Positions 29,897 to 38,118 of a stretch of 64,000 nt of DNA are shown here, in pieces; position 1 is the stretch's first letter, and each line of letters opens with the position of its first letter. The DNA is taken from assembly GCA_963678785.1 (NCBI GenBank), contig OY787449.1, positions 528,801 through 592,800 of the forward strand, written 5' to 3'. The position numbers and the translations under genes were made by a program. This stretch comes from Bacteroidales bacterium. GTDB taxonomy: Bacteria > Bacteroidota > Bacteroidia > Bacteroidales > GCA-2711565. The notes beneath the pieces are model-generated. The model did no database searches and was not told the origin of the DNA. It worked only from the letters and a program-made list of their open reading frames with translations.

Positions 29897-29995
29897 GAAC
29901 GCCCTCCACCAAATTTATTAACAAACCTAACCTTAATTAATTTCTTTTGCGCTTTTGAGCCTCAGTACCAACATATGAATCTATAAATTTACTAT
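29897..29995 (-). pseudogene. Scrambled relic of an S51-gene 3' end (internally deleted unit plus the start of a further unit)
   Basis: The minus strand reads ..aaatttatagattcatatgttggtactgaggctcaaa | agcgcaaaagaaattaa | ttaaggttaggtttgttaataaat | ttggtggagggcgt... These pieces match, in order, the (Y)KF(M)DSYVGTxAQ codons, the last codons plus stop, the 3'-UTR motif, and the FGGGR codons of the 32024..33640 gene. Confidence 0.6.
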
Positions 29996-30171
29996 AACCT
30001 AAATATTTAACTTCATACCCAAACTATGAAAAACATTCTTCAAATGTTAATTATTAATTATTTTTAAGCTTCGTTTTTCTTCAACGATAAATATTCAAAA
30101 TACAAATTAGAAGCTTATTGTGAACACTATAAGTTGTTGTTATATATTATTGATACTAATTACGGCTCCTT

Positions 30172-31413
30172 TTACTCCTCGGAATATTCTTTAGCACCAG
30201 AAAAAACATCCTTGTCTATATCATTAAGGTGTGAACTGATTATTGCTGTTCCAACTAAATCACCGGTTACATTGCAAGCTGTGTGTGCAATATCTACCAA
30301 AGGCCATAAGGCTGCTAAAATAGGAACTAATGTTAATGGCAGGTTTATTGTCTGGAGCAAAATGGTTGCCATAACAATCCCAGCGCCTTTAACTCCTGCA
30401 GTGCCAATAGATAGAACCAACCCGAGAAAAACAAATTGAAGAATAAGAGATGTTGTAATCGGCATATTATAAAGATTAGCAGCAAAGACAGCTATAATGC
30501 CGATAACTGCAGCCATACCATTCATGTTTATTGTTGCACCCAAAGGCAGTGTAAAGCCATATATTTTCTCAGATGTTCCTAATTTTTTATGTGCAATTCT
30601 CATAGCTTCTGGTAGAGTAGCACTACTTGATGTGGTGCTTGCCGCGACAAGCATTGCTGGTGTTATATTCTTGTAAAATCGAAAGATGCTCAGCTTACCC
30701 AATTTTTTTATTGCAATGGGATAAACTACAACCAAAATTATAATGATCGCAACAGTATCAGCTATAATAAAGCGTCCAACTTCGGATAAAATATCTGTAC
30801 CCATCGTTCCCACCATATTTGCAATAAGTGCAAGAATACCATAAGGTGCGGTTTTCATAACGAACTCTGTAATCTTAATCATTATATCCGCACCCTCATC
30901 AATAAGCTTTACCATGTTTGTAACCCTTTTACCAAGAGCCAGTAAGCTAACACCTACTATTATTGAAAAAAAGATAATCTGCAACATGTTAGTGGTTGCC
31001 ATAGCTTCAATAGGATTAATAGGAATCCATTCCACTATACTTTCTATAAAATTATATTGTGTTGCTTCAATTTCAACTCCAGAACTTAAGAGACCTTGTG
31101 CACCTTTACCTGGCATAAAAATGAGTGCGATACCCGTTCCTATAACAGCAGCAATAAGTGAAGAGACAGCATAATACAAAAGAGTCATTCCACCAACTGA
31201 TCGTAGTGAACGCAAACTTTCCATTTTAGTTATACCGCTTATTAATGTAAAAAAAGTTAGTGGAACAATAAGCATTTTAAGCAACCTTATAAACATATCA
31301 CCTACAGGCTCAATAACTGTTGCTTTAGGACCCAAGAGAAACCCAAGGCCAATTCCAATAATAATACAGATAAAAATCTGAGTGTGAAGTTGCTGCTTAA
31401 ACCACCATTTCAT
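30172..31413 (-). CDS. Dicarboxylate/amino acid:cation symporter (DAACS/GltP family)
   Basis: 413 aa. About 8 TM segments plus re-entrant hairpins. SSSATLP and GxTINMNG(M)A motifs are characteristic of Glt-type transporters. Confidence 0.9.
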   Translation of the reverse strand: MKWWFKQQLHTQIFICIIIGIGLGFLLGPKATVIEPVGDMFIRLLKMLIVPLTFFTLISGITKMESLRSLRSVGGMTLLYYAVSSLIAAVIGTGIALIFMPGKGAQGLLSSGVEIEATQYNFIESIVEWIPINPIEAMATTNMLQIIFFSIIVGVSLLALGKRVTNMVKLIDEGADIMIKITEFVMKTAPYGILALIANMVGTMGTDILSEVGRFIIADTVAIIIILVVVYPIAIKKLGKLSIFRFYKNITPAMLVAASTTSSSATLPEAMRIAHKKLGTSEKIYGFTLPLGATINMNGMAAVIGIIAVFAANLYNMPITTSLILQFVFLGLVLSIGTAGVKGAGIVMATILLQTINLPLTLVPILAALWPLVDIAHTACNVTGDLVGTAIISSHLNDIDKDVFSGAKEYSEE

Positions 31414-31502
31414 AATATAGATTATTAATTTATTAATTCAATTTAACCCGTTAATCTTAGACTGATCCTCTAAGATCATAGTCATTCAATATCTCTATTA
31501 AT

Positions 31503-32005
31503 TCAGTTCTTATTCCCTAAGTTGATAAGTTTACGTAACCTTAAATCATATTTTTCACCTGAACTCAAAATAATTGGATTGCCTATTTCCAGAAACGGAG
31601 TATTCCATACCTTTTGATTTTTTAAATCATAAAATGTTACCGCGTTTTTTCCCAGCACCTTAGCATCTGTTCCTTGCACAAAAAGAGCAGTTGCCTCATC
31701 TATACCAATACCTAACATTTGAGGATGTTTCATCAAAAGTGTTGGTAAAGTATATTCGCGTCCACGCTGACGGAAATGAGCATCAATTATTACACCACGT
31801 ATGAAACTCAAACCTAAGTCATTACCTTCCATCCATAATGTATCATTTGTCCAGGATCACCACGAACTAAAAAACCTCCAAGAATCTGTGTTCCAGCTGA
31901 TGAGCCCACAATAATTCCCCCTCGCTCCAGCAATTCATTCATTTTCACTTGAGCCTGAGTACCAACATAGGAATCCATAAATTTATAAGTACGCCCTCCG
32001 CCAAA
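31503..32005 (-). pseudogene. 5'-truncated, frameshifted third copy of the S51 (cyanophycinase-type) gene
   Basis: About 430 bp (31575..32005) are about 95% identical by eye to 32078..32507. A 1-nt deletion near 31853 (ccagg versus cctagg) breaks the frame. The copy begins abruptly at the FGGGRTYKFMDS codons, fused to the 3'-UTR of the upstream gene. Its C-terminal 25 codons (GNPIILSSGEKYDL..) resemble the paralog at 33863 rather than the one at 32024. Confidence 0.8.
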
Positions 32006-36649: not shown

Positions 36650-36661
36650 AGTATTTAAATT

Positions 36662-37546
36662 TTAGAGGTGTTTATCAATTATTTTAATTAATTCTTTTTC
36701 TGTTTCAGGGCTCAACGCCTGAATAGGCTTTCTGGCAGAACCACCATAATAACCCAAATAATCCATTGCTCTTTTCAGAGCAGGTATTCCCCAACGACTT
36801 GTAATCGCTGTATTAACGGGTATCATATCCAACTGCATTTTACGCGCCTTTTCAATATCCCCTTTAAAAAAATCATTATAAATACTTAAGCATTGATTAG
36901 GTGCAATATTTGCCAATGCAAGGATACCTCCAACAGCTCCAACTGAAAGGGCTGGTAATAAGAATCCTCCTGAACCTGCCAGTATCTGAAATTCCGGCTC
37001 CGCCATTCTTCTTATATCACCCATTTTTACAATGTTACCTCCCGAATCTTTCACACCAATAATATTTTGATGAGCAGATATTCTAACAATGGTCTCAGCA
37101 TCCATGTCTAAGCCGGTACTGGCTGGCATATTGTATATTATTACCGGAACTTTTGAAACATCTGCAACTGCCCAATAATGCTCAACCAAGGCTTTTTTTG
37201 ACATCAAACCTTTATAATAAAAAGGATTTAGCACTAAAACTGCATCTGCACCTGAAATGGCTGCCACTGTATTATTACTAATGGTTTCTCTTGTTGTTTG
37301 TCCGCCAGTTCCAATAAGTAGAATTTTATCTTTAGCAACCACATCTCGTGCCAACGAATAAACTTTTTGCCTTTCATTTTCTGAAAGATTTACCAATTCA
37401 CCATTTGAACCCAAAACAAGAAATCCTGCCAAATCATATTGGCTTAATTTGCGAATATTGTCTTGCATTTTACCACATGCAAGCTTCTCATTTTTATGAA
37501 ATGAGGTTGGTAAAGGAGGAAAAATGCCATTTAATTTTAACATCAT
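36662..37546 (-). CDS. DHDPS/NAL-family class-I aldolase, HOGA1-like (putative 4-hydroxy-2-oxoglutarate aldolase); not a canonical DapA
   Basis: 294 aa. GSNGE, IYNMPASTGLD (Tyr) and Schiff-base Lys in GVKDSGG. Also LAGSGGF, GAVGGILALAN and WGIPALKRAMDYLGYYGG. These parallel human HOGA1 as I recall it and differ from the DapA motifs GTTGE and KEASG. Confidence 0.7.
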   Translation of the reverse strand: MMLKLNGIFPPLPTSFHKNEKLACGKMQDNIRKLSQYDLAGFLVLGSNGELVNLSENERQKVYSLARDVVAKDKILLIGTGGQTTRETISNNTVAAISGADAVLVLNPFYYKGLMSKKALVEHYWAVADVSKVPVIIYNMPASTGLDMDAETIVRISAHQNIIGVKDSGGNIVKMGDIRRMAEPEFQILAGSGGFLLPALSVGAVGGILALANIAPNQCLSIYNDFFKGDIEKARKMQLDMIPVNTAITSRWGIPALKRAMDYLGYYGGSARKPIQALSPETEKELIKIIDKHL

Positions 37547-37695
37547 AAATAAATATTAGATTATCATAAATATGTTTCTGTATTTAACTTCAGCAAAATT
37601 ATATCTAACCCGAATAAGCTAAAAATTGTTTCAATGTATATTTTTAGTATTTTTACATCAATCAACAGTATATTTACATTTTTTACATTTTATCA

Positions 37696-38118
37696 ATGGT
37701 TGACAATTTAGACAACAAGATAATTCAATTATTATCCATTAACTCCAGATTATCATTTGCAGATATTGGCCGACAAATAAATTTATCACCTTCTTCTGTC
37801 AGGGAAAGAGTTCTGAGAATGGAAGATATAGGTCTAATAGAAAAGTATACCTTAAAAATAGACAAATCAAAACTGGGATATCAGATTGAAGCATTTATCC
37901 TAATCAAAATATTTACCGGTAAACTGAAGCCTTTTTTATCCATTGTTAATAAAATTGAGGAAGTGCAAGAATGCTACCGTATTACAGGAAATCAGAATGT
38001 GCAACTTAAGGTAATTTTAAAGGATCAGCTACATCTCCAAAAACTCTTGGATCGCCTTATGAATTATGGAAATACATCCACCTATTTAATACTTTCAGAA
38101 GTAAAGAACGAGGACTAA
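37696..38118 (+). CDS. Lrp/AsnC-family transcriptional regulator
   Basis: 140 aa. N-terminal HTH (LDNKIIQLLSINSRLSFADIGRQINLSPSSVRERV) plus a RAM/ACT-like C-domain. It is divergent from the aldolase operon. Confidence 0.9.
   Translation: MVDNLDNKIIQLLSINSRLSFADIGRQINLSPSSVRERVLRMEDIGLIEKYTLKIDKSKLGYQIEAFILIKIFTGKLKPFLSIVNKIEEVQECYRITGNQNVQLKVILKDQLHLQKLLDRLMNYGNTSTYLILSEVKNED

Follow-up and report, generated by a model that had tools for sequence, protein, structure and literature searches.

Genes of the Island

The locus considered in this study is a block of about 8 kb in a marine-type Bacteroidota genome, that of a Bacteroidales bacterium (assembly GCA_963678785.1), and lies within a stretch of 64,000 nucleotides of contig OY787449.1 (positions 528,801 to 592,800) that I will refer to as the window. 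Coordinates are those of the window unless another contig is named. The block, or island, consists of minus-strand genes and a divergent regulator, set between carB and pyrB/pyrI. In order of transcription, the minus-strand genes encode an aldolase resembling human HOGA1, a class-V aminotransferase of the AGXT type, two proteins of peptidase family S51 (S51-A and S51-B), a broken S51 copy, and a symporter of the DAACS family. The regulator belongs to the AsnC/Lrp family.

All of the open reading frames (ORFs) proposed for the island in a first-pass annotation of the window were recovered in place, each with a strong Pfam family signal, and profile searches with Peptidase_S51, DHDPS, Aminotran_5, SDF and AsnC bore out every family named there. 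None of the island proteins reaches an equivalog cut-off of NCBIfam, so that no straightforward orthologue of a named enzyme is among them. The genes for the aldolase and the aminotransferase are separated by 12 nt and those for the aminotransferase and S51-A by 30 nt, on the same strand, so that both junctions look operon-like. No terminators are predicted between the genes of the island, and the counts given by a scan for sigma-70 promoters and terminators equal those in shuffled sequences and are uninformative. The island shows no compositional anomaly that might point to horizontal transfer (GC 0.359, as compared to 0.347–0.365 in the flanks), and Rfam finds no RNA element within it.

The Aldolase and the Aminotransferase

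The aldolase gene (36662–37546, minus strand) encodes 294 amino acids with the fold of the DHDPS family of class-I pyruvate aldolases (Pfam DHDPS, E 5.5e-57). Among solved structures its best match is human HOGA1, at 264 bits (E 1.6e-77). The next is a DapA, at 132 bits, and no solved protein of the family other than HOGA1 exceeds that score. Identity to HOGA1 is 43.5% across 283 gap-free positions. The protein falls below the cut-off of the DapA model TIGR00674 (173.1 versus 206.15 bits) and also below those for NanA, Arch_KDGaldase and KdgD.

The residues that define the human enzyme were established by mutagenesis (PMC3188589): Lys196, Tyr168, Tyr140 and Ser77, together with Asn78 and Ser198, which are specific for 4-hydroxy-2-oxoglutarate (HOG) and whose equivalents in Escherichia coli DapA are Thr45 and Ala163. 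In a gap-free alignment with human HOGA, the window protein possesses the Schiff-base Lys166 and the relay of Tyr138, Tyr110 and Ser47, and it matches the HOG-specific pair with Asn48 (in GSNGE) and Ser168 (in GVKDSGG). The Thr44-Thr45 pair of DapA is thus replaced by Ser47-Asn48. The arginine with which DapA binds aspartate semialdehyde, which I take to be Arg138 in E. coli numbering, corresponds to Ser143 of the aldolase, in the motif YNMPAST.

The two-fold gap in score and the full set of HOG-specific residues mark the protein as a predicted HOGA1-type enzyme and not a DapA, as the first-pass annotation had supposed. Placement with DapA or NanA is ruled out by the scores and the signature residues, which were used here in place of a tree. 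With mammalian HOGA1 (human and bovine, PDB 3s5n) the aldolase shares the Schiff-base lysine, both tyrosines, the serine and asparagine of the GSNGE loop, and the KDS motif with its HOG-specific serine. It differs in being bacterial and cytoplasmic, in sharing a putative operon, in this lineage, with the gene for a class-V aminotransferase next to that for an AsnC regulator, and in having no context of proline dehydrogenase or pyrroline-5-carboxylate (P5C) dehydrogenase. In Bacteroidota this family is a large one (over 5,900 matches at E <1e-20, often named 4-hydroxy-2-oxoglutarate aldolase by JGI), and in five contexts the aldolase gene overlaps or abuts a gene of the AGXT family.

The neighboring gene (35489–36649, minus strand) encodes an aminotransferase of 386 amino acids (Pfam Aminotran_5, E 3e-20), which extends over the full class-V fold and retains the SQK motif (TASQKAIG) with the lysine that binds pyridoxal phosphate. 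Among proteins of known structure it scores highest with Sulfolobus AGXT (261 bits), followed by yeast AGX1 (249), Nostoc AGT (195), plant SGAT (182) and human AGT (143). The top NCBIfam model is that of BhcA aspartate–glyoxylate aminotransferase (NF045640), at 236.8 bits against a cut-off of 650. The earlier assignment to the AGXT/serine–pyruvate type holds as regards the family, since the fold and the lysine motif are those of the AGXT, serine–pyruvate, serine–glyoxylate and BhcA enzymes, but the protein is distant from human AGT and reaches no equivalog cut-off, that of BhcA included. It appears to be AGXT-like at the level of the family only.

Two-Domain S51 Proteins

S51-A (33863–35458, minus strand; 531 amino acids) and S51-B (32024–33640, minus strand; 538 amino acids) are 54% identical, and both score above the cut-off of the Pfam S51 family, PF03575. 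In each protein, however, the profile directly matches the C-terminal half only (residues 338–494 in S51-B). S51-A was examined further by phmmer against the PDB, hhalign, an AlphaFold (AF2) model and Foldseek. Its residues 278–527 match the cyanophycinases 3en0 and 7uqv (phmmer, E ~1e-15), and the active domain, approximately residues 278–531, carries Ser405 (GTSAG), His446 (DAHF) and Glu473 (IDE), all of them invariant in 31 family members; S51-B keeps the same triad motifs. When the N-terminal half (residues 35–277) was compared to the C-terminal half by profile–profile alignment, using the 31-member alignment, the two matched with a probability of 99.8% and an E-value of 5e-30. The N-terminal half is therefore read as a second S51 domain, one in which the catalytic positions are gone: GTSAG has become GGQGI, DAHF has become EATD, and IDEAT has become IPTSA. 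The AF2 model of S51-A is of high confidence (pLDDT 89.6, pTM 0.86), and in Foldseek its active domain finds 7uqw, 3en0 and 7uqv at E ~1e-16, ahead of an acI peptidase and PepE.

Both proteins carry predicted signal peptides, of the Sec type in S51-A (ending …NLIA before QQ) and of the lipoprotein type in S51-B (ending …LIFSS before C), and those of the orthologues are similar; both are thus predicted to be exported. The first-pass annotation had described two exported paralogs of about 535 amino acids with an intact triad. The lengths, the export signals and the Ser-His-Glu triad all stand, but the proteins are not plain S51 peptidases of one domain. They are best described as fused pseudo-dimers, in which a catalytically dead S51 domain precedes a cyanophycinase-like domain whose triad is intact.

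The architecture is not confined to the island. When 1.84 billion representatives were searched with the dead domain alone, 239 clusters (at 50% identity) matched at E ≤1e-3 and 36 at E ≤1e-10. The matched proteins are mostly 500–590 amino acids long and contain two matched stretches. The architecture defines a small but genuine family, with members in Planctomycetota, Bacteroidota, Verrucomicrobiota, Acidobacteriota and others. Literature searches found no paper describing tandem or pseudo-dimeric S51 proteins, and they gave nothing relevant on the "cyanophycinase-like exopeptidase" of acI.

With the cyanophycinases CphB and CphE (MEROPS S51; 3en0, 7uqw) and with 7uqv, the S51 proteins of the window share the fold of the C-terminal domain (TM-score 0.72–0.78, target-normalised) and the Ser-His-Glu triad, and with CphE they share export. 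They differ from CphB and CphE in being about twice as long, owing to the dead N-terminal domain, and in scoring below the cut-off of the cyanophycinase model TIGR02069 (93.9 bits for S51-A and 100.8 for S51-B, as compared to 126.6). They differ also in the substrate pocket. In Synechocystis CphB, the beta-Asp-Arg pocket was reportedly found by Law et al. in 2009 to comprise Gln101, Asp172, Gln173, Arg178, Arg180 and Arg183. Three of these (Asp172, Arg178 and Arg180) have equivalents in S51-A (Asp444, Arg450 and Arg452) that are invariant in the family, while Gln101, Gln173 and Arg183 are replaced, in the phmmer alignment, by Thr375, Ala445 and Thr455. Yet 7uqv, which has all six, is labelled pseudo-CphB.

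The S51 enzymes characterised so far all act at aspartyl residues (PMC9239234). The Asp-specific hydrolases PepE and MccG, which belong to the same family and share its mechanism, cleave in this way, and such a specificity fits the amino-acid-catabolic neighbors of the S51 genes in the window. PepE and MccG differ, however, in being cytoplasmic, single-domain proteins of about 230 amino acids, and the match to them is weak (29–32 bits with the PepE model; E ~1e-3 with structures in the PDB).

Duplication and Decay in the S51 Array

Downstream of S51-B lies an S51 pseudogene (31503–32005, minus strand), recognized by blastn and by reading of the sequence as a tandem copy of the final third of S51-B, truncated at its 5' end and frameshifted. 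It opens at GGGRTYK, 17 nt past the S51-B stop codon, and is interrupted by a frameshift of 1 nt near position 31851. A residual ORF of 109 amino acids (31503–31832, minus strand) matches positions 153–224 of TIGR02069. The DNA of the pseudogene is 94.2% identical, with one gap, to nucleotides 1132–1597 of S51-B and 73.8% identical to S51-A. The first-pass annotation was right that a broken third copy is present, but this degree of identity marks it as a recent partial duplicate of the end of S51-B and not an old gene in decay.

A fourth remnant (29887–29991, minus strand), found through direct repeats (D3–D6), blastn and reading of the sequence, lies downstream of the transporter gene, so that this gene is enclosed by what is left of the array. 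In it, KFIDSYVGTEAQ is joined to …KRKRN and a stop codon, followed by the motif found at the junctions between copies and by FGGGRSCSF. By blastn it matches nucleotides 1152–1188 (89%) and 1598–1617 (95%) of S51-B. The array has been both duplicating and decaying, and it now comprises a pair of intact genes, a truncated pseudogene and a small remnant.

The junction motif is a conserved sequence of about 25 nt, TAGGTT(T)GTTAATAAAT(T/G)TGG, present after the stop codons of S51-A (33835–33864) and S51-B (31996–32025) and again in the fourth remnant (29904–29933). It holds two boxes resembling the Bacteroidota -7 element (TAnnTTTG), and it could mark a junction left by duplication or act in regulation.

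The Carrier

The last minus-strand gene (30172–31413) encodes a cation symporter of the DAACS/SDF family (Pfam SDF, E 2e-114), which falls below all NCBIfam equivalog cut-offs, those of GltP and DctA included. Its best solved relative is the aspartate transporter 9bgz (321 bits). In this family, an arginine in the eighth transmembrane segment (TM8; Arg397 of GltPh, Arg447 of EAAT3) binds the side-chain carboxylate of the substrate, and a conserved aspartate binds the alpha-amino group. The segment of 9bgz that contains the arginine, DMARTTVNVTGD, aligns with DIAHTACNVTGD in the window protein, placing a histidine where the arginine would be, and the aspartate is retained. The 120 closest homologues (60–92% identity, several phyla) have histidine at this position in 96 cases, asparagine in 23 and glutamine in one, and in none of them is it arginine. 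The label of an Asp/Glu-type symporter, given earlier, is therefore unsupported. The carrier belongs to a distinct subfamily of DAACS proteins. Its substrate is likely to have an alpha-amino group, but not to be recognized in the usual way through a distal carboxylate. It shares with the Glt-type transporters (GltPh, GltTk, 9bgz) and the EAATs the full-length SDF fold, the aspartate that binds the alpha-amino group and the NVTGD motif; the replacement of arginine, in which it differs from GltPh and the EAATs, resembles the loss of this arginine in carriers of the family that transport neutral amino acids.

Four of the eight best orthologues of the transporter (83–87% identity) lie on contigs equal in size and source to contigs that carry orthologues of the aldolase (6,938, 62,350, 19,454 and 6,352 nt). 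None of the four sizes occurs among the S51 matches. These equalities suggest that the carrier belongs with the aldolase, whose module it apparently accompanies in other Bacteroidales MAGs.

The Divergent Regulator

The regulator (37696–38118, plus strand; 140 amino acids) was correctly described as an Lrp/AsnC protein transcribed away from the aldolase: it has an N-terminal helix-turn-helix of the HTH_AsnC type and a C-terminal AsnC_trans_reg (RAM) domain, both above the Pfam cut-offs. It reaches no equivalog (AsnC, Lrp, LysM and so on). Its identity to the regulator of a congener is 86%, and it is 57–61% identical over the full length to regulators that stand beside S51 operons in other Bacteroidota. 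The AsnC regulators of these loci presumably form one orthologous group. The intergenic region (37547–37695) contains, by pattern search, a Bacteroidota-type -7 box, TAATTTTG, on the minus strand at 37594–37601, 48 nt upstream of the start of the aldolase gene; the box is only suggestive, because the motif is not enriched in the window as a whole.

Occurrence in Other Genomes

The nearest comparisons are contigs L091 and L092, from congeners whose aldolases are 82% and 73% identical to that of the window. Both show the same frame, with pyrI, pyrB and the AsnC gene facing away from the aldolase and aminotransferase genes and with carB on the far side. A third contig, L090, from the closest relative (aldolase 94%), has the three genes for regulator, aldolase and aminotransferase at another chromosomal position and has no S51 gene. 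This trio is the core that the congeners keep. Its members give conflicting identities to those of the window (aldolase, aminotransferase and regulator are 94%, 82% and 80% identical in L090 and 82%, 76% and 86% identical in L091). Taken with the shifted position in L090, the conflict suggests that the module has recombined or been transferred between relatives.

In the slot that holds the S51 array and the transporter in the window, L091 (12383–17944) and L092 (12373–17685) have genes for an M18 aminopeptidase (at equivalog level), a YhcH/YjgK-family protein, an Amidohydro_2 protein, a RimB-like protease, a RimK ligase and an AstE/AspA-family deacylase, as well as MscS. The slot genes amount to another set that acts on acidic amino acids or peptides. 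The AstE/AspA-family gene was considered as a candidate for CphZ and rejected: it scores best with deacetylases of the DoeB type, lies in the RimB–RimK cluster and matched no CphZ structure.

L092 bears a trace of the S51 genes nonetheless. Directly after its aminotransferase gene, codons 1–15 of S51-A (MKLITRFKNLMVFLI) are fused to codons 495–530 (FDLSNTDTNDTPLLEVENPIVLKSGEKYNLKLRKEI), with 67% identity and an E-value of 2e-14. Because of this deletion scar, I take S51 to have been attached to the trio in a common ancestor and later lost, and the adjacency of S51 and aminotransferase to be older than the divergence of about 27% between the aldolases.

Outside these relatives, Bacteroidota orthologues of the S51 proteins at 49–63% identity were compared. 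L083/L084 carry an S51 orthologue (58%) at a distance of 4.5 kb from orthologues of AsnC (57%), Aminotran_5 (69%) and DHDPS (62%), the latter two genes adjacent, in what appears to be an independent co-location of S51 with the aldolase module. In seven further contexts, S51 is found with or beside an aminotransferase of the PRK06207 type, with a GhrA-like reductase, an aspartate-dehydrogenase-like enzyme or RidA, and/or with AsnC. In L081/82 and L085, a divergent AsnC gene faces a GhrA-like 2-hydroxyacid dehydrogenase, followed by S51 and the PRK06207-type aminotransferase. In L086 and L089, S51 is followed by the aspartate-dehydrogenase-like enzyme and the aminotransferase, and in L087 and L088 by the aminotransferase and RidA, in one arrangement with a divergent AsnC gene. 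L097 has AsnC and S51. The dehydrogenase partner scores best with the glyoxylate/hydroxypyruvate reductase GhrA. Orthologous AsnC genes therefore stand beside S51 in L081, L085, L088 and L097 and beside the aldolase and aminotransferase in L083 and L090–92.

Neither cphA nor genes for an isoaspartyl dipeptidase or for arginine catabolism were found in the window, as the first-pass annotation had noted, and no proline/hydroxyproline dehydrogenase or P5C dehydrogenase was found either. These statements cover 20 of the 24 non-island ORFs of at least 150 amino acids, ORFs of 231, 153, 157, 1054, 242 and 853 amino acids lying outside the scan. In the nine annotated Bacteroidota contexts of S51, IadA, IaaA and CphZ are likewise missing from the genes with Pfam annotation, the tblastn panel used for the other contexts having contained no such query. 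In contrast to CphB and CphE, the S51 proteins of the window are linked to aminotransferases and an AsnC regulator and show no linkage to cphA or isoaspartyl dipeptidase.

Metagenome contigs added little: a scan with single proteins came back empty, and one based on alignments gave 8 loci only. Certain secreted proteins recur near the S51 orthologues. A protein of 1,212–1,214 amino acids, composed of Peptidase_S8 and MAM domains and a tail for the type IX secretion system (T9SS), lies about 4–10 kb downstream of S51 in the Bacteroidota contigs L081, L085 and L086, in company with one or two others that are secreted by the T9SS. Their recurrence may reflect either shared ancestry or a larger neighborhood of secreted proteases. 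L085 also has (6272–8263), beside its operon of AsnC, dehydrogenase, S51 (49% identity) and aminotransferase, a 663-amino-acid fusion of GNAT, RLAN and ATP-grasp (RimK/LysX-like) domains.

A Mosaic Locus with a Proposed Role in Scavenging Amino Acids

The island is best seen as a mosaic locus for the scavenging and catabolism of amino acids, not a fixed unit of five genes but two modules that have been linked repeatedly. One module is made up of the AsnC regulator, the aldolase of the HOGA type and the aminotransferase of the AGXT type, to which the His-type carrier probably belongs as well; the other is made up of the exported pseudo-dimeric S51 peptidases. The account I tentatively favor, at somewhat short of an even chance, connects them in a single pathway under the control of the AsnC regulator: cleavage by exported S51 proteins, uptake, transamination by the class-V enzyme, and formation of pyruvate that depends on the aldolase. 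In this account S51-A, as a soluble periplasmic protein, and S51-B, as a lipoprotein, would cleave an Asp-anchored peptide or isopeptide outside of the cytoplasm, and the carrier would take up a released amino acid. The aminotransferase would convert the amino acid to a 2-oxo acid, from which the aldolase would yield pyruvate, either by cleaving a 4-hydroxy-2-oxo acid (for example HOG to pyruvate and glyoxylate) or by decarboxylating oxaloacetate; Kobes and Dekker reportedly found beta-decarboxylase activity in bovine HOGA. Any glyoxylate might be reused as amino acceptor and leave as glycine. Substrates, co-transcription, the effector of the regulator and the direction of flux are all what I infer from the genes and their arrangement.

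That the modules are linked in function, through a shared effector or substrate, is argued by the gaps of 12 and 30 nt, by the scar in L092, by the co-location on L083, and by the presence of the same orthologous group of AsnC regulators beside either module. As to the substrate, since S51 enzymes cleave at aspartyl residues, and since S51 partners elsewhere include an aminotransferase like AspAT, an aspartate-dehydrogenase-like enzyme and RidA, aspartate or a related amino acid would seem to be deaminated. The partners in the window point elsewhere, given the HOG-specific signature of the aldolase and a carrier without the carboxylate-binding arginine. Candidate routes are from aspartate through oxaloacetate to pyruvate, from 4-hydroxyglutamate through HOG to pyruvate and glyoxylate (and on to glycine), and from serine to hydroxypyruvate. 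No single substrate that can be named satisfies all parts of the locus.

Several observations weigh against a single pathway. Upstream of S51-B there are 222 nt and upstream of the transporter gene 610 nt, and because of these gaps S51-B and the transporter may be transcribed separately. A carrier lacking the arginine for Asp and Glu sits awkwardly beside a peptidase that releases Asp, and its co-location with the aldolase elsewhere consists of matched contig sizes and not inspected DNA. The first-pass annotation had treated the five genes as one arrangement, but they are not a syntenic unit. The three closest genomes have no S51 genes, the scar occurs in one of them only, and the congeners keep no more than regulator, aldolase and aminotransferase. 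Aldolase orthologues at 68% and 63% identity stand alone, with neither aminotransferase nor regulator nearby. S51 itself stands alone among genes for secreted proteins in L001/L096 and L093/94. In the wider S51 family, 80 loci mostly from Planctomycetota (27–40% identity), tblastn found no aldolase, transporter or regulator nearby, and unbiased clustering of the 1,091 neighboring ORFs at these loci disclosed no recurrence beyond abundant planctomycete families, each in at most 9 of the 80 loci.

A route like that of animals for hydroxyproline and hydroxyglutamate deserves consideration, although I think it unlikely. A hydroxy-acidic amino acid would be released, imported and transaminated, the resulting HOG cleaved, and the glyoxylate turned into glycine by the AGXT-type enzyme, perhaps in a closed loop of two enzymes. 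The idea draws its strength from the aldolase, which possesses the complete HOG-specific signature, with Asn48 and Ser168 where DapA has Thr and Ala, and scores twice as high with HOGA1 as with any other solved enzyme of its family, and also from the five contexts in which its gene overlaps or abuts one of the AGXT family. With the GhrA-like dehydrogenase of alternative S51 operons added to the aldolase and the aminotransferase, relatives of AGXT, GRHPR and HOGA1, the three human enzymes that handle glyoxylate, all recur around S51 and AsnC. Missing, however, among the scanned ORFs of the window are the dehydrogenases for proline or hydroxyproline and P5C, and action on peptides of hydroxyproline or hydroxyglutamate is not known for any S51 enzyme. 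Moreover, 4-hydroxyglutamate has a distal carboxylate, for which the carrier lacks the binding arginine, and the aldolase orthologue at 63% lies within a cluster of glycoside hydrolases and sulfatases, which hints at a broader use of 4-hydroxy-2-oxo acids.

It is improbable, too, that the juxtaposition is fortuitous, the S51 array and transporter being a strain-variable insert that shares no pathway with a self-sufficient module of regulator, aldolase and aminotransferase. The same slot does hold unrelated genes in the congeners, the trio of the closest relative is elsewhere and without S51, the array continues to duplicate and decay by all appearances, and the wider S51 family shows no linkage. 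Against these stand the mere 30 nt on the same strand between aminotransferase and S51-A, an adjacency that the scar in L092 makes older than the divergence of the aldolases, the independent co-location on L083, and the orthologous AsnC genes that flank S51 in some genomes and the aldolase and aminotransferase in others.

Returning to the account of scavenging followed by aldolase-dependent formation of pyruvate, there is a more specific version of it, which I regard as quite doubtful. The island may represent an undescribed Bacteroidota system in which the pseudo-dimeric S51 proteins, whose dead domain would serve the active domain as an internal partner, free a non-standard or Asp-linked amino acid from some peptide or polymer of the environment other than cyanophycin. 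The His-type DAACS carrier, the AGXT-type transaminase and the HOGA enzyme would then yield pyruvate, and glycine by way of a glyoxylate loop, under a dedicated regulator of the AsnC family. Such a system, if real, would be the bacterial equivalent of the glyoxylate network of HOGA1, AGXT and GRHPR in animals.

The least probable reading is classical scavenging of cyanophycin, in which exported CphE-type S51 proteins would release beta-Asp-Arg and the rest of the block would handle the aspartate: cyanophycinases do supply the nearest solved structures as well as the top NCBIfam model, export signals are predicted, three of the pocket residues are invariant, and scavenging clusters with transporters have been described in Bacteroidota and others (PMC10206079, PMC9974463), but sub-threshold scores, a pocket altered at three of its six positions, a solved look-alike labelled pseudo-CphB, the absence of IadA, IaaA, CphZ and arginine catabolism from the genes scanned (the single AstE/AspA-family gene of the congeners not being CphZ-like), and a carrier that is neither a dipeptide nor an arginine transporter and lacks the arginine for the side chain of Asp disfavor it. 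The "cyanophycin utilization locus" of marine Bacteroidota that scavenge cyanobacteria (Ben Hania et al. 2017, cited in PMC10206079) likewise combines S51 genes with a transporter. As described in PMC10206079, however, that locus contains iadA, and the island has instead an aldolase and an aminotransferase as partners.

All of the component families of the island were known already, and the aldolase family is annotated automatically as HOGA in some databases. What appear to be undescribed are the S51 architecture of a dead and an active domain, the recurrent coupling of S51 in Bacteroidota to one AsnC orthologous group and to interchangeable modules for oxidizing amino acids, and the His/Asn-type subfamily of DAACS carriers. 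Knowledge of the substrate of the two-domain S51 proteins, if confirmed, would broaden a peptidase family whose known members all act at aspartyl linkages, those of cyanophycin, Asp-X dipeptides and microcin C. Among Bacteroidota, a protein closely related to human HOGA1 and equipped with all of the HOG-specific residues is widespread. What it does in bacteria is not described in the literature searched, and searches for bacterial pairs of HOGA1 and AGXT returned nothing relevant. A bacterial HOGA, if confirmed, bears on the metabolism of glyoxylate and oxalate precursors in environmental and possibly gut Bacteroidota. The His/Asn-type carriers make up a large subfamily, and their annotation as symporters of dicarboxylates or acidic amino acids is probably wrong.

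Flanking Features of the Window

On one side, the minus-strand genes converge with carB (26570–29797, plus strand), and between them is a G+C-rich hairpin (29807–29839), with a folding energy of -25.4 kcal/mol and a z-score of -6.18; none of 200 shuffled sequences folded as well. It is probably a bidirectional terminator. Other genes for the utilization of amino acids and peptides lie further upstream of carB, encoding an S15 X-Pro dipeptidyl peptidase (10515–12428), a Na+:alanine symporter (15959–17638) and an L-serine dehydratase (24835–26040). The gap between the last of these and carB holds an ORF of 119 amino acids (26092–26451), which resembles what I take to be the four-helix-bundle "23S rRNA intervening-sequence protein" common in Bacteroidota.

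On the other side, pyrB/pyrI (38323–39695, plus strand) is followed directly, 3' of pyrI, by a gene with a Schlafen/AlbA_2 domain (39715–40395), which has counterparts in L091 (7244–7882) and L092 (7240–7878). In the window and in both congeners it is placed between pyrBI and one or more rRNA operons. The window contains two such operons, identical and in tandem (41134–46301 and 47322–52490, with a period of 6,188 nt), each consisting of 16S rRNA, three tRNAs, 23S rRNA and 5S rRNA, and these account for the GC-rich stretch without ORFs downstream of pyrBI.

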